A stretch of DNA of 64,000 nt from a bacterium (GCA_043812655.1 JBDRLW010000003.1:21125-85124), one strand, 5' to 3'. Shown: positions 4,888-53,442, counted from the first letter of the stretch. Translations and numbers: made by a program. The notes: generated by a model not told the origin, from the letters alone.

Positions 4888-4903
4888 TTTAGTCCGCCTC
4901 CTC

Positions 4904-5803: not shown

Positions 5804-5823
5804 ATTTATTAGCCTCCTTATGA

Positions 5824-13685: not shown

Positions 13686-13705
13686 TTCATCCTCCTTTAA
13701 AATAA

Positions 13706-14404
13706 TTACAAACCGCCATCAATGGCTATTTTCGCTCCGTTGACATAAGGAGATCTGATTAAAAAATCAATTGCATTAACGATATTTGAGACTTTCCCAA
13801 ATGATTTTGACGGAATCTTATCTAAGATACTCTTTTGGTCATTTTCACTTAGCGTTTCAATTAAACCAACATCAAAATAACCCAACACCAACAAATTCGA
13901 AGTAATATTAAAACGCGCATATTCCTTTGCTAGGACACGTGACATACCAATCAGCCCAGTTTTAGTTGTGGAGTATGCAATGGTGCCTATCCGTCCCTCC
14001 ATGCCTACAACGGAAGAAACATGAACAATACGTCCCCAGCGTTCGTTAATCATAATAGGAAGCAAGGCCTTGGTCAGTAAAAAATCACCTTTTAAATTAG
14101 TTGCTAGCACTTTATCCCAATCAAGCTCGGAGTAATTAGCCGCCAATGCATCAATACTAGACGCTGCCAAATTAATTAAAGTAACTTTTTTTAGCTCACT
14201 TCTACGCTTCTCCACAAATGCATTTATAGCCGTAGAGTCAGTGATATCTAATTTTTCAATTGAAAACCCGTTCATCGCAATCACTTTTGGCTTGGTTTTA
14301 TTGTAAATCCCAATAACCTGATCCATTGCCAATAATTTGCTCAAGATTTCTTTTCCGATTCCACCAGACACACCGGTTAGAATGATCATTGATTTTCTCC
14401 CCAC
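13706..14404 (-). CDS. SDR family oxidoreductase, 3-oxoacyl-ACP reductase (FabG)-like
   Basis: 'ILTGVSGGIGKEI' matches TGxxxGIG. Catalytic 'YSTTKTGLIGMSRVLAKE' matches YxxxK. Confidence 0.65.
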   Translation of the reverse strand: MGRKSMIILTGVSGGIGKEILSKLLAMDQVIGIYNKTKPKVIAMNGFSIEKLDITDSTAINAFVEKRRSELKKVTLINLAASSIDALAANYSELDWDKVLATNLKGDFLLTKALLPIMINERWGRIVHVSSVVGMEGRIGTIAYSTTKTGLIGMSRVLAKEYARFNITSNLLVLGYFDVGLIETLSENDQKSILDKIPSKSFGKVSNIVNAIDFLIRSPYVNGAKIAIDGGL

Positions 14405-28043: not shown

Positions 28044-28688
28044 TTAGCCTGCCTCCTTGATCTTGTTGCGGAAAAAAGCGGCAATAGTCTTTGGTGCAGC
28101 CGGCTGTTCGCTTAGGTAACGAAGCTTTTCATCGACAACAATATCACCAGTAAATGCCAACTGCTCCAGGAACATCCGCTCGCTAAAGACCTCTCCATAT
28201 TTCTTTTTGGCTATATCAGTTATTTGATCAAGCGCGAGAAAATTATTTTTTACCATGACATAAAGATCAAAATAATCACGGTAATTACCGCGTCGGCCCA
28301 AAGCATATGCCTTGGTCGCCGCGATATCCTTGATCGATAATAACGGTAAATTTCCTGTTGTTTTCACCAATGGAAAAAGCGGTCGCCAATAATAATTCAA
28401 GAGCGTAATTTTAATATTGCCATCTAGAACTATTGTCAACTCATCAGCCGTATCGACTAGAGTGGTAAGATGATATTGGCGCAGTCCGCCCAGAAGTTTT
28501 CTTTTAACGGCAAAGGTAATATCCTTATCACGAAAAAGGTCGAAATCGAGTGACTCACGATGTCCTATCTGCAAAGCTAAAGCCGTACCACCGGCTAGAT
28601 AATAATCATGGCCTAATACTTTATTGAGCCTGGAAAAAACTGTCTTTCTTTCCGGATCAAGTATTTTCCAAAATAATTTTTTATTCAT
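28044..28688 (-). CDS. nucleotidyltransferase, AbiEii/AbiGii toxin family (second copy)
   Basis: 'YLAGGTALALQIGHRESLDFDLF' is the AbiEii NTase core motif. Confidence 0.6.
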   Translation of the reverse strand: MNKKLFWKILDPERKTVFSRLNKVLGHDYYLAGGTALALQIGHRESLDFDLFRDKDITFAVKRKLLGGLRQYHLTTLVDTADELTIVLDGNIKITLLNYYWRPLFPLVKTTGNLPLLSIKDIAATKAYALGRRGNYRDYFDLYVMVKNNFLALDQITDIAKKKYGEVFSERMFLEQLAFTGDIVVDEKLRYLSEQPAAPKTIAAFFRNKIKEAG

Positions 28689-38066: not shown

Positions 38067-38080
38067 ATATTTGGTAAATG

Positions 38081-38260
38081 CCGCGGAGAGGAATTGAACC
38101 TCCATGGGTTTAACCCCGCTAGCTCCTGAAGTCCCGCTTCATTAATATTTTATCATAATGACTTGCGGGATCCCGACGATTACATTATTATCATATCTTA
38201 ATGACCGTCGGGACTAGTGCGCCCGCCTTCGGCGGGTAAATCTGCCAGATAATAAACTTG
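38081..38260 (-). pseudogene. 5'-truncated tRNA-Leu-like pseudogene carrying two short hairpin insertions
   Basis: Minus strand reads TGGCAGA, then insert tttacccgccgaaggcggg, then CGCACTAG, then an 88-nt insert with the tcccgacg...cgtcgggatccc hairpin, then CTTCAGGAGCTAGCGGGGTTAAACCCATGGAGGTTCAATTCCTCTCCGCGGCA. Confidence 0.5.
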
Positions 38261-38270
38261 CTTCTTCAAA

Positions 38271-38354
38271 TGCCCAGGAGAGGAATTGAACCTCCATGGG
38301 TTTAACCCCGCTAGCTCCTGAAGCTAGTGCGTCTGCCAGTTCCGCCACCTGGGC
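38271..38354 (-). tRNA. tRNA-Leu (anticodon CAG)
   Basis: The reverse complement folds as a class II tRNA. Acceptor GCCCAGG/CCTGGGC, anticodon loop TTCAGGA, long variable arm, T-loop TTCAATT. Confidence 0.85.
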
Positions 38355-38424
38355 ATTTGAAGGTGGAAATATTCTCTCATAAATTGACTGCTGATTCAAG
38401 ATATTTTTCTGAAAAAAAAGGAGA

Positions 38425-38571: not shown

Positions 38572-38700
38572 ATTTCGACTCCGTCTCGACTCACTGCGTT
38601 CGCTCGACGTCGCTCAATGCCGAGAGAAGCCGAGACATTCCACTTTACCCGCCTGCCTACCGGCAGGCAAGCCGTAGGCGGGCACAGCGGCACGACAACT
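38572..38700. repeat. composite repeat upstream of tRNA-Leu(CAA): CTCGAC-family hairpin plus duplicated tRNA 5' end interrupted by palindromic hairpin CCCGCCTACGGCTTGCCTGCCGGTAGGCAGGCGGG-TAAA
   Basis: Minus-strand read: TGCCGCTGTG, then cccgcctacggcttgcctgccggtaggcaggcgggtaaa, then GTGGAAT, then gtctcg...cgagac, then the intact tRNA. The same palindrome in opposite orientation is at 44720-44760. Confidence 0.5.
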
Positions 38701-38942: not shown

Positions 38943-40187
38943 ATGGATATTGTAGAGTTAGAAGGTAAGACCCTGCCCCAATTATACGAGGTCGCCAAAG
39001 GTTTGAACATTGCCAACCTGCGGCAATTAAAAAAGCACGACCTGGTTTTTAAGATCCTCGAAGCCCAGACCGAAAAGAACGGCCACATTTTCACCAAAGG
39101 GATCCTAGAGATCCTGCCCGAAAATTATGGTTTCTTGCGGACCGGCGGCTATCTCCCCAGCCGGGAAGACGTTTATGTTTCGCAAACCCAGATCCGCCGC
39201 TTTGATATGCAAAACGGTGATTTTGTCACCGGCCAGGTCCGGCCGCCTAAAGAGGGCGAAAAATATTATAGTTTGCTGAAGATCGAAGCGATCAACGGCG
39301 AAAATCCGGAAGGGGCGAGACAGCGCATACCATTTGACAGCTTAACACCAATTTTCCCCAACCGCCGCTTTGGTTTGGAATTTCCCGGTTGCCCCATGGC
39401 TTGCCGGTTGATTGACATGGTCGCGCCGATCGGCGCCGGCCAAAGAGCAATGATCGTCTCGCCGCCAAAGGCCGGTAAAACCACGGTCTTGAAAAATATC
39501 GCTAACTCGATCACTGAAAATTTCCCTGAAACCCTGATCAAAGTCTTACTGGTTGATGAACGGCCGGAAGAAGTGACCGATATGCAAAGGTCAGTTAAAG
39601 GCGAAGTCGTTGCTTCAACTTTTGATGAGCCGCCGGAGGACCACATTAGGATCGCCGAATTATTACTGGAAGCTTGCAAACGCTTAGTTGAAGCAGGCAA
39701 AGATGTCGTAATCCTCCTTGATTCGATCACCCGCTTAGCTCGGGCTTACAATTTAGTTACCCCACCCTCCGGCCGGACGCTGTCCGGCGGTCTTGACCCG
39801 ACTTGTCTCCACCGGCCAAAGCGCTTCTTCGGCGGCGCGCGGAATATTGAAGAAGGCGGCAGTTTAACGATCATCGCTACTGCTCTAGTTGAAACCGGCT
39901 CCAGGATGGACGATATTATTTATGAAGAGTTCAAAGGAACAGGTAATATGGAACTCCACCTCAACCGTAAGCTGGCTGACCGGAGAATTTTCCCAGCGAT
40001 CGACGTGCGGCTCTCCGGCACCAGGCGCGAAGAGCTCCTAATGGACGATAAGGAACTGAAAAAGATGTGGCTCTTGCGCAAAGTGATGGACAATTACGAG
40101 GCGGTTGAAGCGACCGAACAATTAATTGAACGGCTCAAAACCTTTAAGACTAATAAGCAGTTCTTTGATTCGGCTGATGTAAAGTAA
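38943..40187 (+). CDS. rho: transcription termination factor Rho
   Basis: N-terminal '[18 protein letters not shown]' Rho-N. Walker A '[18 protein letters not shown]'. 'Q-loop/R-loop' regions. Length 414 aa. Confidence 0.9.
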
Positions 40188-41049
40188 TTTGATTTAACTT
40201 TCCAAATTGAAACAATTCAACTTGCGAAGCAGGTTTTTCAGTACCATTTTCATCTTGTATAACAAATAATTGGCTTTCTGGATATGGCACTTTCCCCCAG
40301 GCGAATTGGAGCTTTTGGAAATAGGCAACTCCTTTATTTCTTAACAATTCCTTTTCTCCCCTTGATTTGAACGCATTATTATTTAATAACCTATAAATAA
40401 AACTATAAGCATAAGCAGAGGCGAAAAATTCGGTCGTAAATTTAGACGTCTGTCTTCCAACTTGTTCGACAATTTTTAAATACCCAAGCTGACAAATTAA
40501 TGCTACGGCTAAGTTGATCGCCTCAATTTTTTCAGTATTTTTAAAACTGCTGCGCAACAAGATAGCTTTGGTTGGTTTTCTCCTTTCACGGGAAGGATCA
40601 ATCGCCCCATTCTTTTCCAGGCAATATTTAATGTTCTGTATTACCGTTCCGGAAATTGGCAGAAACCCTTGACGATTCTCCATTGCTTCCCCCAAATAGG
40701 TTGAAAAACCAACGTAGCGGCAATAGGATTTCAAATCCATCCGATAAAACACTTCCGCCTTTTCAACAATATCTAATATTTCTTTGGGCAAATTCCCTGC
40801 GCGTAAAATCAGGACGGTATCACCAATACTCTGTTCAGCAGGCCGCATAGCTTGCCTTAATTCAGAAAAACTCAAGCCGTGTTTCCTTTGCGCTGGGGAA
40901 AGCCTAACTATCCGAAAATCCAGTGTCCTTTCCACTAATGAAATGTCTCTTCCTTGCCCGGGCAGTCTCTCAATTTGAATTTGCGATGCTTGAACAGCCC
41001 CGTTTTTCCCCCAACGTATTCTACCTTTGCCGCTTATTCTTGTATTCAT
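40150..41049 (-). CDS. hypothetical protein (no recognisable motif), operonic with the upstream PEP-utilizing enzyme
   Basis: 299 aa. Starts 2 nt after the stop of 41051-43396. No P-loop and no obvious catalytic motif. Confidence 0.4.
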   Translation of the reverse strand: MNTRISGKGRIRWGKNGAVQASQIQIERLPGQGRDISLVERTLDFRIVRLSPAQRKHGLSFSELRQAMRPAEQSIGDTVLILRAGNLPKEILDIVEKAEVFYRMDLKSYCRYVGFSTYLGEAMENRQGFLPISGTVIQNIKYCLEKNGAIDPSRERRKPTKAILLRSSFKNTEKIEAINLAVALICQLGYLKIVEQVGRQTSKFTTEFFASAYAYSFIYRLLNNNAFKSRGEKELLRNKGVAYFQKLQFAWGKVPYPESQLFVIQDENGTEKPASQVELFQFGKLNQITLHQPNQRTAY

Positions 41050-41050
41050 A

Positions 41051-43396
41051 TTATTTTATTCCCTCGATCATGCTAATGCTTTTGGCTTTTTTCCTTACGT
41101 TTAAATAACTCACCGGCCTTGGTGACTTAACTAATTCTCCAATAACGGTCCTGGTATCATAATGCTTGCTTTTTTGAGCTAAGCGAACTAATAACTTTCT
41201 AACTTCCATCGCATTTTTTTGATCCAATAAAGCTTCAATTAATGGCTTTTTTAATTTCCGCTCAAATTTTTTCCATTCCCCATAATGAAAATATGATAAC
41301 AAATACTTTATCTGGTTTTGCCAGGCAGGATTCATGCTCAACGAATCTATCCCCATTAAAGTTAATACTAACGCTCCTAATGGGTCTCTAGCCATTTCCC
41401 CGCAAAAACCAATTCTACCTTTATGCCTTTCTTGATATAACTTTGTTAATAACCCATGAGCTGCTAATTTTTCTTTTTCCGAAACTTTACTAGCCGATAA
41501 AAAGGCCGTAAAATCAGCTTCAGGCTCTTTCATGATTATATAAGCATCTCTAGTTACCTTTAACAAATATCCATGTTTCTGCAGCTCATTTTTCAGCGGT
41601 TCAGACCAGCTGGCAATTTCTTCCACCTTTATGGAACCCTTAACGCCTTTAATCGCCTCAAATATATACCCTAATACTTTTGGTGACAGCCAATCATATT
41701 CCATTCCGGTCATTAGTTTTGCTCGATCATCAATCTCTAATACCGCGGCAGTTAGATCATTGCCCCCAATAGAAAACACCTGGCATTTTTGGGCGATCGC
41801 TTCAATATTTTCTACTGCTTCTGGCGTCTCAACCATAGCGCCAAGCTGAATGAATTGGCTGACACGTCGCTGATCAATAGTGTAATCGGTAATTAAATCA
41901 GTCTCATATTTTTTTACTAAATGTGCGACTTGCTCAACCTGTTCAGGGGTCCGGATCATTGGGATAATAACAGAAACCTTTTTCCCTGCTAAACCATCTT
42001 CATCTGGATAATATTTCAGACGATCACAAGCAATCAATAGATCCCTGATCTGATCCCTTAAAATGGCTTTCCCTTTGTCAACTTGTAGCAAAAAATCAAC
42101 CCCTCTTTTCCCTTGCGTAAAATCATCAAAAGTGCTTTCCGCTTTTGGATACTTATCCTTATCCACGTCAAAAAAGCGAAAAACAATATCTGTCGTTGCT
42201 TCAATAGCATTAATAAATTGTCTTATTAAAGACGGATTTGTTGGTCTCCCCAGCGTATAATGATCTTCCGTGCGATAAAGACCAACTTCTTGAGTCTGCG
42301 CCCCCTCACTCCCCATATTTTCCATGATCTTTGGCAACGGTAAACGTTGATCATCTCCAGATAACCCTGTCCAGTGTGTGTCTGCATACTTCTTTGCTTG
42401 AGCCATCGCATCACCGATCTCTTTATTCATTAAACTAATATTGCGATCATCAACATTCACCACAACTTGTCCTGTATGGGGGTTCATTATTACTTTTACT
42501 TCCGGATCTATGTGCGCAAATACTTTTTTGGCTTCTGACATCAAAACTACAGGAATCCCGCGATTAAATGCCAATAAATATGGATGGCTTGCCAAACCCA
42601 TAAATTGATGGTCAAAAATAAAGCCTCTCGCCCCAAGATGAACATGAGATTGAATCTCTCCCCAAGCAAGATAATCAGCTACTAAATAATAACCTGTTTG
42701 CTGTATGGGACAATTAACGCCATCAATATGCGCCAATAATCGGGGCAAATACAACTCTGCGTCCTTGTATTGCTCCTGTTGCCGCATGTGTATTGGGACT
42801 TGGCTATTAAATATAATCCTTAACTCTTTTAACTTCCTATATATTGAAGCTCGATCATTAGGTTCTACCAGTTTTTTTTCTTGTAACAATCTTGATTTAT
42901 CCACAACATCTCTTTCTGTCTTATTAAACAAATCAACTGAAACCTGAAGAAAAGCCTTAAAAGAAGCAACAAATTGCGGCCATACCGTTTCAAATGCTTG
43001 ATGGGCAGAAATATTCTGCTGTTCAATCATCATTTTAGATTGTGTAGCCGCTTCTTTAATCACATAACCAAAGGCCTCATCTTTTTTATATGCTTCAACC
43101 AATGAATCTATTTTTTTAAGTTCATCCTCTTTTTTAATCGGCAGTAATTGATTATTCGTACCGCAAACAACCTGATCGATCAATAGACAACTGGGTAAAA
43201 CATAAGCTGGGTTTTTATCTAGAGGTATTTGTTTCTCTGGTGGAGGCAAAACTCCATTCCCTCGACCAGTAAAAGTCAAATTTTTTGTAAGTGGCCGGCG
43301 CTTTGAAAATGAATGGTTTTCTTTTCGTACTACTCCGTTTATTATCTTACTAAGGGTCATATTAATACTCCTGATCATTAAATAGCATTCAACCAC
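41051..43396 (-). CDS. PEP-utilizing enzyme, PTS enzyme I (PtsI/PtsP)-like, with a novel ~230-aa N-terminal extension
   Basis: Mobile His domain 'LGARGFIFDHQFMGLASHPYLLAFNRGIPVVLMSE'. EIC TIM-barrel blocks 'LYRTEDHY', 'FRFFDVDKDKYP', 'IIPMIRTPEQV', 'GAMVETPEAV', 'FSIGGNDLTAAVLEIDDR' and 'FCGEMARDP'. Confidence 0.6.
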   Translation of the reverse strand: MVECYLMIRSINMTLSKIINGVVRKENHSFSKRRPLTKNLTFTGRGNGVLPPPEKQIPLDKNPAYVLPSCLLIDQVVCGTNNQLLPIKKEDELKKIDSLVEAYKKDEAFGYVIKEAATQSKMMIEQQNISAHQAFETVWPQFVASFKAFLQVSVDLFNKTERDVVDKSRLLQEKKLVEPNDRASIYRKLKELRIIFNSQVPIHMRQQEQYKDAELYLPRLLAHIDGVNCPIQQTGYYLVADYLAWGEIQSHVHLGARGFIFDHQFMGLASHPYLLAFNRGIPVVLMSEAKKVFAHIDPEVKVIMNPHTGQVVVNVDDRNISLMNKEIGDAMAQAKKYADTHWTGLSGDDQRLPLPKIMENMGSEGAQTQEVGLYRTEDHYTLGRPTNPSLIRQFINAIEATTDIVFRFFDVDKDKYPKAESTFDDFTQGKRGVDFLLQVDKGKAILRDQIRDLLIACDRLKYYPDEDGLAGKKVSVIIPMIRTPEQVEQVAHLVKKYETDLITDYTIDQRRVSQFIQLGAMVETPEAVENIEAIAQKCQVFSIGGNDLTAAVLEIDDRAKLMTGMEYDWLSPKVLGYIFEAIKGVKGSIKVEEIASWSEPLKNELQKHGYLLKVTRDAYIIMKEPEADFTAFLSASKVSEKEKLAAHGLLTKLYQERHKGRIGFCGEMARDPLGALVLTLMGIDSLSMNPAWQNQIKYLLSYFHYGEWKKFERKLKKPLIEALLDQKNAMEVRKLLVRLAQKSKHYDTRTVIGELVKSPRPVSYLNVRKKAKSISMIEGIK

Positions 43397-43464
43397 ATAT
43401 TTATCGCCTTATTATTCAATTAATTTCACTTCTTTTTGGCTTTCTAGCCTGTTATAATCAAGTT

Positions 43465-44706
43465 ATGTTTGGAATAAATGAAGTCGAGAGAGAAATAGGG
43501 TCAAGGGTCCAGGGTCCAAGGTCCAGAAGAATTAGCAGCATCTCCATCGATTCCCGCACTGTCCAACCCGGTGAACTATTTATCCCGATCAAAGGGGAGA
43601 AATTTGATGGGAATAAGTTTATTAAAGACGCTCTAGCCAAAGGGGCTTTTGTCGTCGAAACAAAAGACGGGCTAACCGCCCTGCACCAGCTCGCCGCTTA
43701 CCACCGCAGTAAATTTGATCTTCCGGTCATCGCCATCACCGGCAGTGTGGGGAAAACGACGACCAAAGACATGCTTGCCTCGATCCTCTCCCAAGCGATG
43801 CCAACCTTAAAGAACGAACAGAACTATAATAATGAAATAGGCGTCCCCCTCACCCTCCTTAAGCTGACCAAAAAGCATAAAGCCGCGGTAATTGAGATGG
43901 GCATGCAGGGAAAGGGAGAAATTGAGCTTTTGGCCAAGATCGCCAGGCCAACTATCGCCATTGTTACCAATATCGGCGAAGCCCACCTTGAACAACTGGG
44001 GACTAAAGCTAATATTGCCAAAGCTAAAGCCGAAGTCTTTAAATTCCTAAAAAAAGAAGATTGGGTGGTGATCAACGCGGATGATGAATACTACGAACAT
44101 TTAGTAGCCAGGGTCCAGGGTCCAGGGGCCAGGGTAAAAACCTTTGGTATTATTGAGAAGGCTGACATTAGAACAAAAGAATTGACGGGGATCAATCTGC
44201 CGCTGCCCGGCGAACACAACATTTATAACGCCCTGGCGGCGATCGCGGTGGCGAAAATCTTAAAAATTAAAAAGCCAGCCATTAAAAAAGGGCTGGAAAC
44301 TTTTAAGCCTTCCAGCAAGCGGATGGAAGTGATCAACCGGCCAGACGGGACAAAGATCATTAACGATACCTATAACGCTAATCCCCAATCAATGGCGGCA
44401 ACCCTAAAAGTCTTAGCCGGTATTGAGCGGCCAAATGTAAAAAGGATCGCAGTCTTGGGAAGTATGCTGGAACTTGGCAAACGCTCCAAAGCCGCTCATG
44501 CCAAGATAATTAAACTGGCCAAACAATTAAAGATCGACAAAGTCTTAACTTTTGGCGAATTCTGGCCAAGCCTGGCTCCAGCGGAAAAAACCAAAAAGAA
44601 CTTAATAAAAAAATTACGGCAATTAATAGCGCCTCGTGATATAATTTTAATCAAGGGCTCCCGGGGAATGAGGATGGAAGACGTGGTCGACGCGATCAGA
44701 ACTTAA
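43465..44706 (+). CDS. murF: UDP-N-acetylmuramoyl-tripeptide--D-alanyl-D-alanine ligase
   Basis: 'SIDSRTVQPGELFIPIKGEKFDGNKF', P-loop 'ITGSVGKTTTKDM', 'NADDEY', 'EHNIYNALAA' and 'INDTYNANPQSM'. Confidence 0.85.
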   Translation: MFGINEVEREIGSRVQGPRSRRISSISIDSRTVQPGELFIPIKGEKFDGNKFIKDALAKGAFVVETKDGLTALHQLAAYHRSKFDLPVIAITGSVGKTTTKDMLASILSQAMPTLKNEQNYNNEIGVPLTLLKLTKKHKAAVIEMGMQGKGEIELLAKIARPTIAIVTNIGEAHLEQLGTKANIAKAKAEVFKFLKKEDWVVINADDEYYEHLVARVQGPGARVKTFGIIEKADIRTKELTGINLPLPGEHNIYNALAAIAVAKILKIKKPAIKKGLETFKPSSKRMEVINRPDGTKIINDTYNANPQSMAATLKVLAGIERPNVKRIAVLGSMLELGKRSKAAHAKIIKLAKQLKIDKVLTFGEFWPSLAPAEKTKKNLIKKLRQLIAPRDIILIKGSRGMRMEDVVDAIRT

Positions 44707-44709
44707 CGT

Positions 44710-44774
44710 GCCGCGGTGGCCCGCCTACGGCTTGCCTGCCGGTAGGCAGGCGGGTAAATGGAACTGGCTGGCAC
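44710..44774 (+). pseudogene. tRNA-Leu 5' fragment (GCCGCGGTGG...GAACTGGCTGGCAC) interrupted in the D-arm by palindromic hairpin element
   Basis: GCCGCGGTGG, then cccgcctacggcttgcctgccggtaggcaggcgggtaaatg, then GAACTGGCTGGCAC. The acceptor 5' strand is complementary to the ...CCGCGGCA end at 45013. Confidence 0.45.
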
Positions 44775-44803
44775 TTACATCCCGAAGTTGAATGCAATTT
44801 TTT

Positions 44804-44887
44804 GCCGAGGTGGTGGAACTGGCAGACACACCAGCTTGAGGGGCTGGCGCCGTTAAAAGCGTAGGAGTTCAAATCTCCTCCTCGGCA
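44804..44887 (+). tRNA. tRNA-Leu (anticodon GAG)
   Basis: GCCGAGGTGGTGGAACTGGCAGACACACCAGCTTGAGGGGCTGGCGCCGTTAAAAGCGTAGGAGTTCAAATCTCCTCCTCGGCA. Class II cloverleaf with anticodon loop TTGAGGG. Confidence 0.85.
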
Positions 44888-44913
44888 TAAAAATTGCTTT
44901 CAAATTCAGAGAT

Positions 44914-45013
44914 GGAGGTTCTCCCGACGGACATTATAATAGAATAATGATGAAATCGTCGGGATCCCGATTTCCGCCAAAGGCGGAACATCGGGAAAGT
45001 CCTCTCCGCGGCA
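44914..45013 (+). pseudogene. tRNA-Leu 3' fragment (T-arm plus acceptor, GGAGGTTC...CCTCTCCGCGGCA) with a hairpin element inserted in the T-loop
   Basis: GGAGGTTC, then tcccgacggacattataatagaataatgatgaaatcgtcgggatccc-gatttccgccaaaggcggaacatcggga, then aagtCCTCTCCGCGGCA. The same 3' end sequence as the 38081 fragment. Confidence 0.45.
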
Positions 45014-45016
45014 TTA

Positions 45017-45664
45017 TTAATTTGCCTTTTTTCTTAATCCCGAAACTGTTGTAAAACTATACCCCTTTTTCTTTAGATCTTTGATCATTATTGGCAGGGC
45101 CTCGACTATTTGCCGGCTATTATCATGCATCAACACTACCGAGCCATTCCGCACCAGGGAAGTAACCCTTTTGGCGATCGAAGCCGCCGTTCGCATCCCC
45201 TTTTTTGGCTGGTAGAAATCGTCAGCGTTCGCGTTCCATAACACGATCTCATAGCCCGCTTTTTCGATCAGCTTTCTTTTAGAATATGGTAATCGCCCGT
45301 GCGGCGGGCGGAAAAGAACAACCTTTTTATTAGTAGCCTTCATGATCAAAAGGGAAGTCTCTCTAATCTCTGCCAGCGTTTTCTTATCATCCATCTGGTC
45401 CAAGGACGTATGGCTGTAGGTGTGGTTCCCGATCTCGTGCCCGTCCGCGCTTGCCTGGCTGACAAACTGCGGATTATCCTTAACTTTCCAGCCGATCACA
45501 AAAAAGGTCACCGGGACATTTTCCTTTTTCAGTATAGGCAAGAGCTTATCGATGACGCCAGGCGTTGGCCCATCGTCAAAAGTTAAAGCAACCTGCTTTT
45601 TCGCGCTCGCGGAAAAAGCTAAACATAATGCCAAGATCAAGATAATGGATATTTTTCTTACCAT
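45017..45664 (-). CDS. secreted polysaccharide deacetylase (NodB homology domain)
   Basis: Signal peptide 'MVRKISIILILALCLAFSASA'. 'LTFDDGP' catalytic motif. 'HTYSH' and 'FRPPHG' are NodB motifs. Confidence 0.75.
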   Translation of the reverse strand: MVRKISIILILALCLAFSASAKKQVALTFDDGPTPGVIDKLLPILKKENVPVTFFVIGWKVKDNPQFVSQASADGHEIGNHTYSHTSLDQMDDKKTLAEIRETSLLIMKATNKKVVLFRPPHGRLPYSKRKLIEKAGYEIVLWNANADDFYQPKKGMRTAASIAKRVTSLVRNGSVVLMHDNSRQIVEALPIMIKDLKKKGYSFTTVSGLRKKAN

Positions 45665-45807
45665 ATAATAAAACCAGTTTTCATTATAGCACTATAATAA
45701 AATAAACATTGATCCCTCATTACTCATTACTCATCCCTCCCTTGCTTCTATAAAAAGTATTCGGTATAATCAAAACAATTGTTAAATCGATCGGTGGTAA
45801 ATTAAAT

Positions 45808-47283
45808 ATGGTTACTATGTGGACAAAAGAAACCTTAAAACAGCTTATTAAAGAAAAATTGAACGGCGATCTTTTTATTGTCGCTTCAAACCGCGAGCCG
45901 TATATCCATAAAAGCGGCCCTGAAGGGATCGAATGCATTAACCCGGCGAGCGGCTTGACCTTGGCGCTTGACCCGGTCTTGCGAGCCAGCGGCGGCGTTT
46001 GGGTCGCGCACGGCAGCGGCGATGCCGACCGCAAGGTCGTGGACGAAAAATGCCGCGTGCAGGTCCCTCCCAAAGACCCAAAATATGCCTTAAGAAGGGT
46101 CTGGCTAAATAAGGCCGAAGAAACCGGTTACTATTACGGTTTTTCCAATGAAACTCTTTGGCCGCTCTGCCATATTGTTTACACCAAGCCAAATTTCGAT
46201 GAGTCGGACTGGCTCCACTATAAAGCTGTCAACGAAAAATTCGCCAAAACTATTTTGGATGAGGTTGGCGACCGAAAAGCTTTTGTTTTTATCCAGGACT
46301 ATCACCTCACGCTGGTACCAAAGATGTTAAGGGATGCTAATCCAGAGATTAAATCCGCCCTTTTCTGGCATATCCCCTGGCCAAACCCGGAAGCCTTCCG
46401 CATCAATCCCTGGAAAGAAGAAATATTGTGGGGAATGCTGGGCGCCGACTTGCTTGGTTTTCATATCCACTATCATGTCGACAATTTTTTAAAGACGGTT
46501 GACCAGACCCTAGAGGTCAGGGTCGATAAGGTCGGGACATCTGTGGTTTCCGGCGGCCGGGAAACATTGGTCAAGCCTTTTCCCATCAGCGTTGACTATG
46601 CACAGATCCAAAAAGATGCCAACGCCCCCGAAACTAAACAATTGACCAGCAAACTTAAGAAAGAATATAACCTTGGCTCGCAATTTATCGGGATCGGCAC
46701 GGACCGGATCGATTACACCAAAGGGATCGTCGAGCGGTTTAACGCCGTTGATAAATTATTCGAAAAGTACCCGGAATACGTTGGTAAATTCACCTTTATC
46801 CAAGCGGGCGTCCTAAGCCGGATCCACATCCAAAAATATAAAGACCTCAATGATGACATTAACGCGACCGTTGAGCGGATCAACTGGAAATACAGCAGTG
46901 ACAGCTGGCAGCCGATCGTCATGATCAGGCGGCATTTCACCCAGAAAGAATTAATGGCTTTGTACCAGATGGCCGATGTTTGCCTCGTTTCTTCACTGCA
47001 TGACGGGATGAACCTGGTGGCCAAAGAATATGTCGCGGCGGCTGACGCCAGCAAAGGGATGCTGGTCCTGTCACAATTCACCGGGGCGGCAAGAGAATTG
47101 ACGGATGCTATCTTGATCAACCCTTACGCTCCAGATAGCTTTGCCGAAGCGATCAAGTCCGCGATCGAAATGCCGCAGGAAGAAAGGGAACGGCGGATGA
47201 ATAAAATGAAAGAAGACGTCGCCGAGAATAATATTTACAAGTGGGCCGGCAAGATCATTCAGTCCCTCCTCAGGCTCTCCTGA
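45808..47283 (+). CDS. otsA: alpha,alpha-trehalose-phosphate synthase (GT20)
   Basis: 'FIQDYHLTLVPKMLR' and 'LFWHIPWPNPEAFRINPWKEEIL' are canonical OtsA blocks. 'VNPYAPDSFAEAI' matches the C-terminal motif. Confidence 0.85.
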   Translation: MVTMWTKETLKQLIKEKLNGDLFIVASNREPYIHKSGPEGIECINPASGLTLALDPVLRASGGVWVAHGSGDADRKVVDEKCRVQVPPKDPKYALRRVWLNKAEETGYYYGFSNETLWPLCHIVYTKPNFDESDWLHYKAVNEKFAKTILDEVGDRKAFVFIQDYHLTLVPKMLRDANPEIKSALFWHIPWPNPEAFRINPWKEEILWGMLGADLLGFHIHYHVDNFLKTVDQTLEVRVDKVGTSVVSGGRETLVKPFPISVDYAQIQKDANAPETKQLTSKLKKEYNLGSQFIGIGTDRIDYTKGIVERFNAVDKLFEKYPEYVGKFTFIQAGVLSRIHIQKYKDLNDDINATVERINWKYSSDSWQPIVMIRRHFTQKELMALYQMADVCLVSSLHDGMNLVAKEYVAAADASKGMLVLSQFTGAARELTDAILINPYAPDSFAEAIKSAIEMPQEERERRMNKMKEDVAENNIYKWAGKIIQSLLRLS

Positions 47284-48292
47284 CTATAAATAACAGATAC
47301 CAGCTGCCGATAACAGTTAGGATGATCAATAATGAATTCCAAGAAAACCGCATAAATAATTTCTCTTTTGACTTATTAATGATCGCAACAATGACCAGGC
47401 AAAGGCAGATCACGCCGGCCAGCGCGGTTAAGATGTTCAGGCTGGAGACCGCGCTTAGTAATGGCGCCTGGCGGTAAAACGGGTCAATTACCGAGATCAG
47501 GGCGATGTTAAAAAGAACAGACCCTAAAAGGCTGCTGATAGCCATATCCGGCGCCCCCATCCGCATGGCTGAAGTGGAAACGGTCAACTCCGGCAAAGTC
47601 GTGATCAGCGACAAGATTATGCTGCCGACGAACGTAGCTCCCAATCCGGTCTGGATCGCCAAACTATTGCCCAGGGTTGAAAGCCAGATGCCAGCCACCA
47701 CCACTAGCGCGCCAAAAAAAACGAATTTAGCCAAAACTGAAGCAACTTTCTCTTTGGTGTAGATATTTTCGACCTCAAGTATTTTCCCCTTCTCAAAAAT
47801 AAATATTTGCCTTTGGCCGATCAAATAAATGATGATGACCGCCAGTGTAAATACGTGCCCATTGACTATTGAAGAAAAGAAGATCCCCAGGCAAACTAAG
47901 CCCAACAGTAAAATGGCAAAACCGGCCGATAGAACGTGGCCAAGGTCAAGCTTGCTAAAAACCGACTTGTTCTTGTAAAGGTAATCCATAAAAGCGACCA
48001 GCAGCAAGTTCATCAGGCAAGCGCCAAGAAGATTCCCCACCCCCAGGTCTGGCTTGCCGACAAAAGTCGCGGCGCTCAAGCTATTTGAAAGTTCGGGGAG
48101 AGAAGTGATCGTAGCGAGCAGAACGATCCCGATCCAGCTTCGGCTCAAATTTAATTTTTCGGCCAGGATATCGGCATACTTGGTCAGTAAACTGGCCGCG
48201 ACAAAGATGATCCCGGCACAAAGAAATAATTCTAAAAACAGGGGCATATAAGGATGATACTTAATATTAGCCTTTTTGTCCAACGTAAACAT
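47270..48292 (-). CDS. Ca2+/cation antiporter (CaCA family, YrbG-like) membrane protein
   Basis: About 10 TM helices. Two alpha-repeat motifs 'GNSLPELSNSL' and 'GSIILSLITTLPELTVS'. Confidence 0.6.
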   Translation of the reverse strand: MFTLDKKANIKYHPYMPLFLELFLCAGIIFVAASLLTKYADILAEKLNLSRSWIGIVLLATITSLPELSNSLSAATFVGKPDLGVGNLLGACLMNLLLVAFMDYLYKNKSVFSKLDLGHVLSAGFAILLLGLVCLGIFFSSIVNGHVFTLAVIIIYLIGQRQIFIFEKGKILEVENIYTKEKVASVLAKFVFFGALVVVAGIWLSTLGNSLAIQTGLGATFVGSIILSLITTLPELTVSTSAMRMGAPDMAISSLLGSVLFNIALISVIDPFYRQAPLLSAVSSLNILTALAGVICLCLVIVAIINKSKEKLFMRFSWNSLLIILTVIGSWYLLFIVRRA

Positions 48293-49364
48293 GTGCTATA
48301 CTAAAAAAGGAGGTGTTGATTTGTCTGATTTATACAATATATTAAGCAATCGCCTTTATTTGGTCGCGGGAATAACTTATCTATTTTGGATATTGTTTTG
48401 CTGGATCTTTGTCGGGTATTTTAACCAGTTTGTCGGCAAGCTGGTAAGGAAGACTGAATCCAGGATCGACGATGTCTTGTTGCGTGAGGCAAAGCTTCCG
48501 CTCTGGTTAACCCTGATCGTCCTCGGGTTCTTTGTTGTTTCCAAGACTGTGGGGCTCCCAAACCAGGTAGCGCTCCGGGTCGAGCGTATTACCGGGCTCA
48601 CGATCGTTTTTGTCCTTATTTATTTCATCGCCAGGCTGCTATTGAACATGGCCAAGTTGGCGGCGGAAAAAAATGCCGGGATAAGGAATATCATGCCCAC
48701 TTTTTCGCGGCTGGCAAATTTAGTCGTCTGGGGAACTGGCCTTCTGATGCTGATGGATATTTTTGGGATCTCCGTAACGCCGGTCTTGGCTTCTTTGGGC
48801 ATCGCGGGTTTGGCTGTTGGTTTGGCCCTCCAAGATACGCTCAGTAATTTTTTTGCCGGTATTTATATTTCCGTCAGCCAGCCAGTGAGGCTCGGTGATT
48901 ATATTCAGCTGGAAAATGGCCTGAACGGCTACATAACGAATATTGGCTGGCGCGAAACCAGGATCAAGACCTTGCCCAATAATATGGTCATCGTCCCTAA
49001 TTCAAAATTATCCCAGTCGATCGTCACTAATTATTATCTGCCTCAGGCCGAAATGGCCTGTTTGGTGCAAGTCGGCGTTAGTTATGACAGTGATCTGGCC
49101 AAAGTGGAAAAAGTTACGGTTGAAGTCGGCCGTGAAGTTTTACAGAAAGTCTCCGGCGGAGTAAAGTCGTTCGAGCCTTTTATCCGCTACCATACATTCG
49201 CTGATTTCAGCATTAATTTTACGGTGATCTTGCGGGTCCTTGAATTTACAGACAAGTATTTAGTGACCCACGAATTCATCAAGGCCTTGCATCAGCGATA
49301 TAAACAGGAAGGCATCCAGATACCTTTCCCGATCAGGGATATAAACATCAAAAAAAGCGGATAA
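48276..49364 (+). CDS. mechanosensitive ion channel family protein (MscS)
   Basis: N-terminal TM helices followed by the MscS beta-domain 'PVRLGDYIQLENGLNGYITNIGWRETRIKTLPNNMVIVPNSKL'. Confidence 0.7.
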   Translation: MSNVNMCYTKKGGVDLSDLYNILSNRLYLVAGITYLFWILFCWIFVGYFNQFVGKLVRKTESRIDDVLLREAKLPLWLTLIVLGFFVVSKTVGLPNQVALRVERITGLTIVFVLIYFIARLLLNMAKLAAEKNAGIRNIMPTFSRLANLVVWGTGLLMLMDIFGISVTPVLASLGIAGLAVGLALQDTLSNFFAGIYISVSQPVRLGDYIQLENGLNGYITNIGWRETRIKTLPNNMVIVPNSKLSQSIVTNYYLPQAEMACLVQVGVSYDSDLAKVEKVTVEVGREVLQKVSGGVKSFEPFIRYHTFADFSINFTVILRVLEFTDKYLVTHEFIKALHQRYKQEGIQIPFPIRDINIKKSG

Positions 49365-49368
49365 AAGC

Positions 49369-50745
49369 TCAAGAAGATTCAGTTTTTGCCAAATACTTTT
49401 TTGGGATCTCCCCGGCCAGTGCCAGCGCCACTTTGGTCAGTAAAGGTCCGATAAGTTCATAGATGATCACCGATGACAGGACGATGGTGATGATCACCGC
49501 TCCGATCTCCGGAAGTTTGGCCTCCACTGACATTGACACTCCGATCGCTACCCCAGCTTGCGGGATCAAGCTGATACCTAAGTATTTTTGGACAGGGGCC
49601 GGCTCTTCAGTTAACCTGGCGCTCCAAAACGCGCCAATAAATTTACCAATGACCCGGGAAATAATATAGACAACGCCGACCAAGCCGATCTGGTTCAAGA
49701 GGCCAAGGTGTAACATCGCTCCGGAGATCACAAAAAAAGCGACGTAAAAAGGCGGACCGGTTAATTTTAGGCCATCCAGCACTTTCCGCCCTTTGGTCGA
49801 GATATTAACAATCGTGGCGCCAACCGCCATTGTCGTCAAAAGCGGAGAAAGATTAAAAGTAGTGGCCGCGCCAACGCTAAACAGGACCCCTCCCAAGATG
49901 ACCATTAGTTGCTCATTATCGTTTTTAGTCGACTGCTCCCAAAGGTTAAGAGCGTAACCGATCAATATCCCAAAGGCCAACGATCCAATGATCACCCAGA
50001 ACGGTTCAATGAAAAAAGTGATAGTGCTAAGCAGGTCCAGAGGATTTGCCCTGGCGGCAACGATCATTTTAGTTATAGAAAAGAATATATGGAAAAGCAG
50101 CAAGCAAAAGATATTGTTTAAGGCCACGACCGCGAGTAAGACATCCGTTAACCTTCCCCGGCTGCGATATTCCCTGACGACCATCAGGGTTGCCGCCGGC
50201 GCGGTGGCGGTGGCGATCGCCCCGATCAAAAGCGCAATATGCAAAGGCTGGCCTAGCATGAACATTGCCCCTCCTACTATTAAAAAGGCGCCTAAAACTT
50301 CGGCGAGCGCGATGTAAATAACTTTAGGCCCGACAGCAATAAAGTGTTTAAGCTCAAATTCCGCGCCGATCGCTAAAATTATCAGGCCAAGCGTAAATTC
50401 GCTGATCACTGTCACATTGCTGATCGTTTCGCTGGTCATTAAACCCAGGACTGAAGGGCCGATCAAAATGCCGGCGACCAGGTAGCCGGTCACTTTCGGT
50501 ATTTTAATATTTTGGGCAAGCTCTCCCATGATCAGGCCAAAGAGCAAAGTCAGCGCGACCGCCATGATGCTGTTCATCGGACGGAAAAAACGAGTGGCCA
50601 GAAAACCCAGGACAAGGATAAAGCCGATGATAATAATAAAATCGCCGGTTTGCGGCAGACGCCGGATGGTCTTTAAATAATTGCGCAGCCGTTTTAAGCG
50701 GTCGATCATGCCGTCAATTATAAACACAATTAACGGCCAGGGCAA
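49369..50745 (-). CDS. cation:proton antiporter (CPA family Na+/H+ or K+/H+ exchanger)
   Basis: 458 aa with about 12 TM. Sodium/hydrogen exchanger family-like composition. C-terminus lacks a TrkA domain. Confidence 0.65.
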   Translation of the reverse strand: MPWPLIVFIIDGMIDRLKRLRNYLKTIRRLPQTGDFIIIIGFILVLGFLATRFFRPMNSIMAVALTLLFGLIMGELAQNIKIPKVTGYLVAGILIGPSVLGLMTSETISNVTVISEFTLGLIILAIGAEFELKHFIAVGPKVIYIALAEVLGAFLIVGGAMFMLGQPLHIALLIGAIATATAPAATLMVVREYRSRGRLTDVLLAVVALNNIFCLLLFHIFFSITKMIVAARANPLDLLSTITFFIEPFWVIIGSLAFGILIGYALNLWEQSTKNDNEQLMVILGGVLFSVGAATTFNLSPLLTTMAVGATIVNISTKGRKVLDGLKLTGPPFYVAFFVISGAMLHLGLLNQIGLVGVVYIISRVIGKFIGAFWSARLTEEPAPVQKYLGISLIPQAGVAIGVSMSVEAKLPEIGAVIITIVLSSVIIYELIGPLLTKVALALAGEIPKKYLAKTESS

Positions 50746-50776
50746 ATGTTTTTAATTTCTGTTATAATAACTGGCA

Positions 50777-51496
50777 ATGCGCTACCTATTATTGCTTGAT
50801 TACGATGGCACCTTGGCCCCGATAAAAAAACACCCAAAACTCGCCCGTCTTTCTCCGCCCAGAAAAACATTTTTGCGCCAGCTGGCTAAACATCCAAAAA
50901 TAAAGATCGCGGTGATCTCAGGCCGAAAGTTGTCAGACCTAAAAAAAATGATCGGCCTCCCCAAGATCATCTATGTCGGCAACCATGGGTTTGAGATCGA
51001 AATTAATGGGAAACATAAAACCCACCCTGCCGCCAGAAAGATCATCCCGACTCTCAAGCGGATCAAGGCGATCTTAGCCAATAAGCTCAAAGTTAAAGGG
51101 GCCTGGGTTGAAGATAAAGACCTGACCCTGACCATTCATTACCGCCAAGCAGCCAAGAAGAGGTTAAAAGAATTTTATCAGCTATTTGATCAATTAACTA
51201 AACCCTGGCAAGGAAAAATAAAGATTACCAAAGGCAAAAAGGTCTTCGAGATCCGCTCACCCTTTGACTGGGATAAGGGAAAAGCGGTAGAATGGCTGAT
51301 CGCTAAATTAAAAATGGAAAATTACCTGCCGATCTATATTGGCGATGATAAAACGGATGAGGATGCCTTCATCGTTTTAAAAGGCAGGGGCAAGACGATT
51401 CACGTTGGCAACGGAAAGACCCTAGCTGAAACGCGGGTTAAAAATATTAGCGGCGTTTACGGTTATTTAAGAGGACTTTATAATGATGCGAGCTAA
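50777..51496 (+). CDS. otsB: trehalose-6-phosphate phosphatase (HAD-IIB)
   Basis: 'LLLDYDGTLAPI' HAD motif I with DxD. 'YIGDDKTDEDAF' motif IV. Confidence 0.75.
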   Translation: MRYLLLLDYDGTLAPIKKHPKLARLSPPRKTFLRQLAKHPKIKIAVISGRKLSDLKKMIGLPKIIYVGNHGFEIEINGKHKTHPAARKIIPTLKRIKAILANKLKVKGAWVEDKDLTLTIHYRQAAKKRLKEFYQLFDQLTKPWQGKIKITKGKKVFEIRSPFDWDKGKAVEWLIAKLKMENYLPIYIGDDKTDEDAFIVLKGRGKTIHVGNGKTLAETRVKNISGVYGYLRGLYNDAS

Positions 51497-52178
51497 GGCT
51501 CCTTTTACTTTCTATACCTCATCACAGCTAGTTGAGATCACTGGCCGAAAAGCCGCGACCCTGAAAGAATTTCTGGGAACCATCAAAGAGATCGAAGAGC
51601 CTTCGATCTTCTACCATGTCCACCATGCCTTCCGGGAGCACCAGTTCGCGCCCGGCCTTTATACCAACGACTTCGCGCATTGGGTCGCCGATGAATTAAA
51701 TGAAAAAGCCCTGGCCGAAAAACTGGCCAACATTAACCTCAAGGATTACTTGGAAATAAACTCCCTGCGGGCAAAGATCGTTGAAATAATCACCAACCAT
51801 TTAAAGACCAATCCCGATGACAACAGCAACCTTGTAGCCAAGCATAAGTTTTATTTCTGTAAAAATGTTGGGGTTGTCATGAAGACCAAATGCGCCGCCT
51901 GGGACCTGGAAGAGTTTTGTGAGATGCTGCGCCGGGTCGGCCTCCGCTCCCTTTTCTTCCATTTTTTTGAGGCCCGCCTAAGGCTGGGGCATAAGACCAA
52001 TGACTTTTCCGATTGGATCAAATTTAATTTTAATAACGACAAGCTAGCGCGGCAGATCGAAGCTTTGGACCCCTATTTATACACGATGGACCAGCTCCGG
52101 GACCAGATCATCAGTTTGATCCAAGGAAAAAAAGAGGATCTGGTCAGCAAAATAATAAAATGGCTAAAAATAGGATAG
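51483..52178 (+). CDS. hypothetical protein, conserved-looking, embedded in the trehalose locus
   Basis: 231 aa, no recognisable motif. Overlaps both neighbours, consistent with translational coupling between otsB and the treT-like gene. Confidence 0.4.
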   Translation: MMRAKAPFTFYTSSQLVEITGRKAATLKEFLGTIKEIEEPSIFYHVHHAFREHQFAPGLYTNDFAHWVADELNEKALAEKLANINLKDYLEINSLRAKIVEIITNHLKTNPDDNSNLVAKHKFYFCKNVGVVMKTKCAAWDLEEFCEMLRRVGLRSLFFHFFEARLRLGHKTNDFSDWIKFNFNNDKLARQIEALDPYLYTMDQLRDQIISLIQGKKEDLVSKIIKWLKIG

Positions 52179-53389
52179 AAGAATATTCAAAGATAATCCG
52201 GCCGCAAAATTTTGATGAGATCATGCTTTTGGCCGAAAAAGTCAAGGGCCGGCGCATTAAGATGGTCAACGCGACCGCGGTCGGCGGAGGAGTGGCGGAA
52301 ATATTGACCCGCGTCGTCCCGCTTTTTAACGATCTTGGGATCAAGACAAAATGGGAAGTCATTAAAGGGAGCGGTGAATTCTTTGGAGTAACTAAAGCTT
52401 TTCATAACGCCCTCCATGGGAGTAAAGCTGATATTACCGAACAAATGTTGAATATTTTCAACGAAACCACGAAAGCCAATATTGCCGAAATGAATTTTGA
52501 AGAAGATGTTATCATCATTCATGACCCCCAGCCCGCTGGTCTGATTGAAGCCAAAGAAAGATCAAAAGCCAAATGGGTCTGGCGTTGTCATATCGATACT
52601 TCCCACCCGCAAGCTGATGTCTGGGGTTTTCTCAAGAATTACGTCGGGAAATATGACGCTTCTATCTTTTCGACGCCTTGGTTCGCTAAAGAACTGCCGA
52701 TACCGCAATATTTTATTTATCCGGCGATCGACCCTCTCGCCGAAAAAAACCGCGATTTGCCGGCCCACGAAGTGAACGCGATCATGCAAAAATACAAGCT
52801 CGACCGGTCCCGCCCGATCATTACCCAGGTCTCAAGATTCGATTATTTAAAAGACCCTCTGGGAGTGATCGAAACATATAAACTAGTAAAAAAACATCTT
52901 AATTGCCAGCTGGTGCTGGCTGGCGGCGGAGCCAGCGATGATCCCGAGGGCGGCCAGGTCTTAAATGCGGTCCAAGAAGCGGCCAAAGGGGATCCTGACA
53001 TCCATATTTTATTGCTCCCGCCGTTCGCTGACCTGGAAATTAACGCCCTGCAACGGGCTTCGACCGTGATCTTGCAAAAATCGCTGCGGGAAGGCTTTGG
53101 CTTAACCGTCACCGAAGCTTTATGGAAGGCCAAACCGGTAGTAGCTTCAGCCGTTGGAGGGATAACTCTTCAGGTTATCCATAATTTTACCGGAATGCTG
53201 GTCCATTCAATTGAAGGCGCGGCCTATCAGATCCGATATTTGATCAATAACCCTCAAGTTGCCAAAAAGTTGGGAGAATATGGCAGGGAACATGTCAGGG
53301 AAAAATTCCTGATAACCAGGAAGATCCGGAATTATTTGCTCCTGCTTATTGCCTTAGAAAACCCCGGGAAAGATGTTATCCAGTTGTAA
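52160..53389 (+). CDS. GT4 glycosyltransferase, trehalose glycosyltransferring synthase (TreT)-like
   Basis: 'VNATAVGGGVAEIL' near the N-terminus resembles the TreT 'STxxGGGVAEIL' motif. C-terminal GT-B EX7E region 'EGFGLTVTEALWKAKPVVAS'. Confidence 0.55.
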   Translation: MAKNRIEEYSKIIRPQNFDEIMLLAEKVKGRRIKMVNATAVGGGVAEILTRVVPLFNDLGIKTKWEVIKGSGEFFGVTKAFHNALHGSKADITEQMLNIFNETTKANIAEMNFEEDVIIIHDPQPAGLIEAKERSKAKWVWRCHIDTSHPQADVWGFLKNYVGKYDASIFSTPWFAKELPIPQYFIYPAIDPLAEKNRDLPAHEVNAIMQKYKLDRSRPIITQVSRFDYLKDPLGVIETYKLVKKHLNCQLVLAGGGASDDPEGGQVLNAVQEAAKGDPDIHILLLPPFADLEINALQRASTVILQKSLREGFGLTVTEALWKAKPVVASAVGGITLQVIHNFTGMLVHSIEGAAYQIRYLINNPQVAKKLGEYGREHVREKFLITRKIRNYLLLLIALENPGKDVIQL

Positions 53390-53442
53390 TGCCATATGGG
53401 GTTGACGGGTGCAAGTTTTTTGTTTATGATACCGATAAATAA

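Follow-up and report, generated by a model that had tools for sequence, protein, structure and literature searches.

The closest described system to the gene considered here is enzyme I (EI) of the phosphoenolpyruvate (PEP)-dependent phosphotransferase system (PTS), known as PtsI (TIGR01417; structures 2HWG and 2KX9 from E. coli, 2WQD and 2HRO from Staphylococcus), which gave the best match in both fold and sequence. In PtsI, a hairpin, a helical subdomain, a swivel domain carrying the phospho-histidine, a linker and a PEP-binding TIM barrel follow one another. Related enzymes include PtsP (EI-Ntr; NF008283) of the nitrogen-related regulatory PTS, which is an EI paralogue unlinked to sugar permeases, and PEP synthase (PpsA; TIGR01418) and PPDK (TIGR01828), which belong to the same superfamily of swivel-histidine and PEP-barrel proteins. 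Here, we describe an EI-like gene of 769 codons that lies, with a gene for a 299-aa protein directly downstream, between rho and murF in a 64,000-nucleotide stretch of bacterial DNA (GCA_043812655.1 JBDRLW010000003.1:21125-85124; the whole of this stretch is referred to as the window). As far as sequence comparison allows a judgement, we consider it fairly probable that the gene represents, in this genome, a small and rapidly evolving enzyme I subfamily that is restricted to Candidatus Margulisiibacteriota and fixed in position between murF and rho. Margulisbacteria are a sister lineage of the Cyanobacteria and, to our knowledge, their physiology is known only from metagenome-assembled genomes (MAGs). 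Our literature search found no description of a PTS in Margulisbacteria, and no defence system built on a PEP-utilizing enzyme.

Comparison of the protein (numbered throughout by its 769-aa form) with NCBIfam models ranked PTS_I_fam first (116 bits), followed by PpsA (46 bits) and PPDK (29 bits), and the curated equivalog cutoffs were not reached (116.5 against 341.7 bits for TIGR01417, and 84.8 against 824 bits for NF008382). The sole Pfam match was PEP-utilizers_C (PF02896; 108 bits), split in two pieces by an insertion. A phmmer search of PDB sequences aligned residues 243-571 and 650-716 with residues 175-489 and 499-566 of E. coli EI (E 1.6e-16), placing 'GLASH259PYLL' onto 'GGRTSH189TSIM'. 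A word-indexed protein search returned the query itself and then only PtsP and PtsI proteins at approximately 25 % identity, the top matches being of the PtsP type (E 6e-13, 23-29 % identity). The AlphaFold2 (AF2) model of the protein had a mean predicted local distance difference test (pLDDT) score of 62.6, with values of 70-94 in the barrel, and its best Foldseek matches were full-length EI structures (2hwg, E 4e-21, approximately 700 columns), then PPDK and PpsA; TMt was approximately 0.8 between the barrel model and structures of the C-terminal part of EI.

Close relatives came only from an exhaustive HMMER search over 1.84 billion representatives; a scan of genome contigs with the EI-like protein returned nothing, and a scan of the same contigs with Rho gave matches of no more than 65 % identity and no usable gene order. 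Nine relatives (P0038-P0046) were recovered at E values of 1e-86 to 1e-28, with canonical EI starting at 6e-21. Their source names are Candidatus Margulisiibacteriota or Margulisbacteria MAGs and, in one case, 'Omnitrophota', and their database labels are generic ('putative PEP-binding protein' for MFA5113722.1, 'hypothetical protein' for MDD4179856.1 and 'aldolase/citrate lyase family protein' for HTY13636.1). In a neighbour-joining tree, the family was monophyletic apart from canonical EI and PtsP, and the window protein formed the longest and most basal branch of the core group, each with 100 % bootstrap support. The members share a G-x-G-N-G hairpin, S/N-H-P, G-[IV]-D-F-L-L, M-T-G-x-x-Y-D-W-L-S-P and a C-terminal DTR...P-x-[ST]-Y, the last being part of a family-specific tail with the signature 'H-x-DTR ... 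SPRP-x-SY'.

At least seven other assemblies have the EI-like gene in the same slot, with murF and rho as its neighbours (Table 1), one of them (L097) showing the murF side only. The Rho proteins of these relatives are 79-94 % identical, and their MurF proteins 62-71 % identical, to the window copies, and in the relative L087 the resemblance to the window extends to accA-accD-rpsT-ispE-carA-carB on one flank and to the flagellar export cluster on the opposite flank. On this comparative evidence, the window comes from a Margulisiibacteriota genome, and the gene is ancestral and position-conserved in the clade. The window EI-like protein is 28-37 % identical to its relatives; among the relatives themselves the EI-like protein is 40-63 % and MurF 57-67 % identical, a pattern indicating that the EI-like gene evolves faster than its neighbours. 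In L096, both murF (182+114 aa) and the EI-like gene (97+285+86 aa) are split into several called genes at positions 3289-6711 of the ENA contig; these are probably frameshift errors of long-read assembly and not real pseudogenes. A separate feature of L087 is an ORF6N-domain gene just beyond rho (13610-14125), with a G+C content at third codon positions (GC3) of 0.49 against 0.8-0.9 in the other genes of that genome; this is a small piece of foreign DNA inserted close to the locus.

The earlier note on this DNA, drawn from the sequence alone, had credited the protein with a phospho-histidine domain and a complete PEP barrel, and residue-level comparison bears this out. The motifs SH259P, GLYRTE (R363), FRFFDVDKDK (R395, D398, D402 and K403), MVETP (E511), GGNDLT (N534 and D535) and CGE (C653) are present, and the residues named here, together with R546 in the first part of the barrel, are catalytic positions kept in comparison with 33 PtsI/PtsP sequences; the same part of the barrel also contains GKRGVDFLL (R419 and D422). 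The phospho-histidine, H259, is encoded at 42584-42586, within 'GLASHPYLLAFNRGIPVV', and varies neither among the 33 canonical homologues nor among those family members whose sequence reaches this position, PF00391 matching six of ten family members and giving no match in the window protein. Across the family, at only 29-39 % overall identity, the equivalents of H189, R296, E298, R332, D335, D339, K340, E431, N454, D455, R465 and C502 are invariant. The conservation of these PEP- and Mg2+-binding and histidine phosphoryl-transfer residues over such a distance argues for retained catalysis in the family. A 74-aa insertion between the barrel and the CGE strand is missing in all 33 canonical EI and PtsP sequences and in all nine relatives, and so is unique to this genome; it was modelled as a small α/β module (pLDDT approximately 70-80), and the idea of a winged helix was dropped for lack of Pfam support.

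The first 230 or so residues had been read as a novel N-terminal extension. This description stands in so far as single-sequence and hidden Markov model (HMM) searches are concerned: residues 1 to approximately 221 alone matched nothing in Pfam, in PDB sequences or in an hhalign comparison with an EI alignment, and the alignment of the window protein with an HMM of the 33 PtsI/PtsP sequences starts only at residue 222. A word-indexed search with the N-terminal 239 aa found nothing at E <= 10, a negative that is unreliable, as the parent protein was also missed. However, a profile of seven family N-termini aligned colinearly with residues 5-199 of EI (the tool's own run gave 25-146), that is, to the hairpin and helical subdomain of the N-terminal region of EI (EIN), at a probability of 70-75 % and pairwise E values of 2.5e-5 to 4e-5. 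The profile matched the family 'G-x-G-N-G-V-F' to the EI hairpin, and '..eV..El.rLe..' and 'INAEAAL' to EIN helices, with a conserved 'NAE-AL' motif lying within the matching stretch. In the window protein, residues 26-221 comprise a 'GRGNGV' hairpin (family G-x-G-N-G-V/L-F), a 13-residue insert after it that is absent from relatives, and an all-helical region with 'ISAHQAF' (family 'INAEAAL'). The full-length family profile matched EI from end to end at 100 % probability (family 86-729 to EI 5-594), leaving only approximately 25 leader residues and short inserts as extra sequence; the leader, residues 1-25, is outside the hhalign match, and the first 50 residues carry a net charge of +7. The evidence is moderate and not decisive, but we think it likely that the region represents an EIN that has diverged strongly, behind a basic and disordered leader of approximately 25 residues, and most likely not a new domain.

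The 299-aa gene presents a different picture. It is an open frame of 299 codons in DNA of 39 % G+C, is annotated as a gene by PGAP, and scores +0.11 in its own frame against -0.17 and -0.21 in the other frames, so that it looks coding. No homologue was found in a 5.8-billion-protein index, viral contigs, phage and plasmid records or PDB sequences, and there was no match in Pfam, NCBIfam, PADLOC or PHROGs, in agreement with the earlier description of a protein lacking any recognizable motif. A tblastn search of the relatives' loci also found nothing, and in every syntenic relative whose contig reaches the junction, the stop codons of the EI-like gene and rho touch or overlap, and no gene separates the two. 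The earlier note had envisaged a two-gene module, had suggested looking for conserved co-occurrence of the pair, and had named lack of conservation of the 299-aa ORF as grounds for giving the idea up, which is the situation observed here: no co-occurrence was found, with at least seven syntenic relatives (the approximately seven genomes available for the comparison) lacking the 299-aa gene, and no homologue in any database searched. Structure prediction, also suggested in the note, gave a model of the N-terminal region with pLDDT scores below 50, which lends no independent support to the EIN reading, and an uninformative single-sequence model of the 299-aa protein (pLDDT 39). A PSRP/DUF299-like regulator and an HPr-like carrier were considered as identities for the 299-aa protein and rejected, there being no family match and no fitting motif. 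With no homologue and no counterpart in any syntenic relative, the gene is to all appearances an orphan ORF particular to this strain, not a partner conserved alongside the EI-like gene, and for this reason the two-gene module read from the raw sequence should stay out of annotation.

Orphan ORFs also stand beside the EI-like gene in some relatives, one of 461 aa upstream (L084 2693-4078 and L085 1348-2733) and one of 475 aa downstream (L086 3017-4444). These have no Pfam match and are unrelated to each other and to the 299-aa protein; the slot beside the EI-like gene seems to accumulate lineage-specific genes.

Composition sets the pair apart from its surroundings. GC3 is 0.32-0.35 in the EI-like and 299-aa genes, against 0.5-0.6 in rho, murF and other housekeeping genes, with sharp edges at the gene boundaries, and the codon usage of the pair correlates with that of a low-GC glycan cluster at 1-30 kb of the window (r=0.90) and not with that of housekeeping genes (r=0.13). 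In relatives, the EI-like gene has the same composition as its flanks. From the low GC3 with sharp edges, the unusual divergence and the unique 74-aa insertion, we infer that a divergent allele, derived from a lower-GC relative, took over the position of the original murF-rho cassette and brought the 299-aa ORF with it; the alternative is accelerated evolution in place. Neither flanking direct repeats nor an integrase were found around the pair, the only repeats being inverted tRNA-Leu loci further out.

Our data are thus best accommodated by a Margulisiibacteriota subfamily of enzyme I, and several observations weigh against that view. PF05524 matches no family member, PF00391 does not match the window protein, and the AF2 model of the N-terminal 220 residues, although helical, has a pLDDT below 50 and was built from an input alignment that forces EI rows onto the region. 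The motif G-W-R358-x-x-R361, at the end of the β3-α3 active-site loop, is invariant in the 33 canonical homologues and lost in the family: R358 is kept in four of 11 family sequences, including the window protein, and R361 in none (Asp, Glu, Ser or Ile instead), the window protein reading G-K-R-G-V-D, with Asp in place of R361. The β3-α3 loop of EI closes over PEP and, as the motif is not conserved, PEP binding, loop closure, kinetics or donor specificity may differ from those of EI. There is also no HPr-like acceptor in the window or in the relatives' loci: a tblastn search of the 64-kb window for HPr, NPr, EIIA and HprK was negative, in line with the earlier note, no PTS domain was detected by Pfam in 30 further large ORFs, from a total of 57 in the window that reach 150 aa or more, and approximately 22 kb of the best relative contains no PTS gene. 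Lastly, the absence of the 299-aa gene from relatives rests on a small sample of about seven or eight, and the low GC3 and 1-nt spacing shared by the two genes would fit a pair that travelled, and perhaps worked, together in an unsampled donor.

That last point touches on the proposal that the EI-like and 299-aa proteins constitute a dedicated two-gene module for PEP-dependent phosphotransfer, with the 299-aa protein as acceptor or specificity factor. The spacing suggests translational coupling, the shared unusual codon usage and GC3 indicate that the genes were probably acquired together, the N-terminal partner-binding region of the window allele is the most divergent in the family, and two relatives likewise carry unrelated orphan ORFs (461 aa in L084/85 and 475 aa in L086). 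We nevertheless regard such a module as unlikely, since the 299-aa protein is without homologues, no syntenic relative encodes it, the three orphan ORFs found next to EI-like genes are mutually unrelated, and the 299-aa protein has neither a recognizable domain nor an HPr-like motif, with an uninformative structure model. A bolder reading, that Margulisbacteria EI-like proteins have lost HPr specificity and use PEP to phosphorylate the lineage-variable proteins encoded by their neighbours (299, 461 and 475 aa), appears improbable; if true, it would imply that proteins are phosphorylated at the expense of PEP by a system independent of the PTS, whose substrates are exchanged rapidly. It is also doubtful that the protein is simply a housekeeping PtsI or PtsP of a normal sugar PTS, with HPr and EII genes elsewhere in the genome. 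Such an enzyme would fit the full-length, in-order EI alignment and the conserved catalytic core, and ptsI is not always linked to ptsH, but the score of 116 bits falls below the 342-bit equivalog cutoff, GAF and PF05524 matches are lacking, GWRxxR is lost across the family, evolution is faster than that of MurF with only approximately ten members among 1.84 billion representatives, and no PTS gene occurs in 64 kb here or in approximately 22 kb of the best relative.

Loss of the R358/R361 motif, changes at G337, Q458 and D464, the unusual 'N/S-H-P-F' context of the catalytic histidine and the rapid sequence evolution could instead be taken to mean that an EI-derived enzyme is no longer a PEP:protein phosphotransferase, and uses another donor or a small-molecule acceptor, or has become a regulatory pseudo-enzyme. 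The strict conservation of all phosphate- and Mg-binding residues, Cys502 and the histidine over deep divergence, together with R358 in the window protein, makes this a rather remote prospect. It is very improbable indeed that the pair arrived by horizontal transfer as an accessory cassette, such as a defence or toxin system, with no tie to core physiology. Such an origin would account for the sharp compositional island and the orphan partner gene, and for the presence elsewhere in the window of an AbiEii toxin gene and a low-GC glycan cluster of the same codon usage; against it, an EI-like gene of native composition stands between murF and rho in at least seven relatives, so the locus is ancestral and was not made by insertion, PADLOC gave only chance-level matches (E 0.03), PHROGs gave none, and searches revealed neither relatives on phages or plasmids nor an integrase or direct repeats at the flanks. 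A defence, phage or plasmid origin of the pair was accordingly rejected on the PADLOC, PHROG, viral, phage and plasmid searches.

If the gene does belong to an enzyme I subfamily of Margulisiibacteriota, a plausible mechanism is one in which PEP and Mg2+ are bound by the C-terminal barrel, which phosphorylates H259 of the swivel domain; from there the phosphoryl group would move on, by way of an EIN-like N-terminal domain that has diverged strongly, to an acceptor protein whose gene lies elsewhere. The most likely acceptor would be a small HPr/NPr-like carrier, serving regulation rather than sugar uptake. The 299-aa gene would probably have arrived with the divergent EI-like allele when the murF-rho cassette was replaced by the DNA of a lower-GC relative. 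The subfamily would represent a compact, phylum-restricted offshoot of enzyme I, labelled only generically in databases, in which the phosphoryl-transfer core is kept, and the partner-binding domain and one active-site loop are changed. Should these genomes lack HPr, they would provide a naturally occurring example of an EI redirected to a different acceptor.

The arrangement of the locus is summarized in Table 1. The two ORFs between rho and murF are on the minus strand at 41051..43396 and 40150..41049, as the earlier note had placed them, with two corrections of detail. The former coordinates give a protein of 781 aa from a GTG start at 43396, and ATG 43360 is the likely start, because it has AGGAG 7 nt upstream and yields a 769-aa product identical to the NCBI protein MFH1386164.1 ('MAG: putative PEP-binding protein'); and the gap between the EI-like stop and the downstream 299-aa gene is 1 nt (TAA-T-ATG), not 2 nt. 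This spacing makes co-transcription of the two genes plausible. The 299-aa ORF is convergent with rho, their 3′ ends overlapping by 38 nt. The promoters of the EI-like gene and murF presumably both lie in the divergent intergenic region. An Rfam scan of the locus found no riboswitch or other RNA element, and promoter and terminator scans were no better than on shuffled sequence.

Table 1. Features of the EI-like locus in the window, and gene order at the corresponding loci of relatives
Feature	Position or locus	Strand	Basis or remarks
EI-like PEP-utilizing protein, 769 aa (MFH1386164.1)	41051..43360	-	ORF, ribosome-binding site, identical NCBI protein, EI homology, Margulisbacteria clade
Basic N-terminal leader, residues 1-25	43286..43360	-	Predicted disordered, pLDDT 25-33, no EI counterpart
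Diverged EIN (probable), residues 26-221	42698..43285	-	Family-profile match to EI 5-199
Swivel phospho-histidine domain, residues 222-330	42371..42697	-	phmmer alignment to E. coli EI H189
PEP-binding TIM barrel, first part, residues 331-574	41639..42370	-	PF02896 108 bits, residue comparison, pLDDT 70-94, Foldseek
74-aa insertion, residues 575-648, between barrel and CGE strand	41417..41638	-	Alignment, model
Barrel, last part with CGE (C653), and C-terminal tail, residues 649-769	41054..41416	-	Alignments
299-aa basic protein, pI 9.8 (MFH1386163.1, ABIH50_00650)	40150..41049	-	ORF, junction, coding-frame score, no homologues
rho	38943..40187		Convergent to 299-aa ORF
murF	43465..44706		Divergent from EI-like gene
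Divergent intergenic region shared with murF, 104 nt	43361..43464	.	Coordinates from ORF and start calls
murF (divergent), EI-like, rho (convergent)	L082, L083, L084/L085, L087/L088/L089 (708-kb contig), L090, L096		Gene order in relatives
murF (divergent), EI-like; contig ends inside EI-like gene	L097		Gene order, murF side only

The block of rho, the EI-like pair and murF is bracketed by inverted tRNA-Leu loci with flanking GC-rich, hairpin-like sequences. Copies at 38076-38131, 38166-38213, 38270-38355 and 38633-38683 face 44719-44969, and the flanks include 51-nt arms that are 90 % complementary and 48-nt arms that are 85 % complementary. The copy at 38076-38131 is a truncated, 56-nt version of the 3′ part of tRNA-Leu(CAG), uncalled by ARAGORN. 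These loci could represent an intergenic repeat, or what is left of a past rearrangement or inversion.

Further from the pair, positions 1-30039 of the window hold a minus-strand surface-glycan cluster of approximately 30 kb with low GC3 (0.3-0.4), encoding NeuB, DegT-type and class-III aminotransferases, a FabH-like protein, an epimerase-GT2 fusion, a Wzx-type flippase, Wzz and Wza. A gene for an AbiEii-type nucleotidyltransferase toxin (type IV toxin-antitoxin or abortive infection) lies at the edge of the cluster (28044-28688). On the other side of the locus, murF directly adjoins the flagellar cluster in L087, the closest long relative, whereas the window has an extra block of approximately 8.7 kb (approximately 44800-53400) with tRNA-Leu and genes for a polysaccharide deacetylase, OtsA, a Na/Ca exchanger, MscS, a Na/H exchanger, a trehalose phosphatase, a DUF5752 protein and a TreT-like trehalose synthase. 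This block looks like an osmoprotection island.

Overall, sequence and domain comparisons place the EI-like protein within the EI superfamily, where it is not filed as PtsI, PtsP, PpsA or PPDK. With PtsI it shares equivalents of H189, R296, R332, K340, E431, N454, D455, R465 and C502 and, as far as the probable match of its hairpin and helical subdomain holds, the domain order described at the outset. It differs in an identity of only approximately 23 %, a helical subdomain unrecognizable to PF05524, the basic leader of approximately 25 residues, the 74-aa insertion before the CGE strand, the family-specific C-terminal tail, the change of R361 to Asp in a GWRxxR motif not conserved in the family, and the lack of a linked ptsH or crr; it is the failed equivalog cutoff, PF05524 and GWRxxR tests that keep it from being filed as PtsI. 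Pfam upheld the view, already taken in the earlier note, that the protein has neither the GAF domain of PtsP nor the ATP-grasp of PEP synthase, and these absences set it apart from the other described enzymes. Unlike PtsP, it has no N-terminal GAF (no PF01590 or PF13185 match) and no ptsO or ptsN nearby; unlike PEP synthase and PPDK, it has no ATP-grasp, gives weak, partial matches to their models (46 bits where the cutoff is 740, and 29 where it is 843), and has a probably EI-like N-terminal topology. Among the Margulisiibacteriota relatives in the murF-rho slot, the window protein is the most divergent, and alone has the 74-aa and 13-residue inserts, the foreign-looking composition and the trailing 299-aa ORF. 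The protein is best described as a new, narrowly distributed variant within the enzyme I family.

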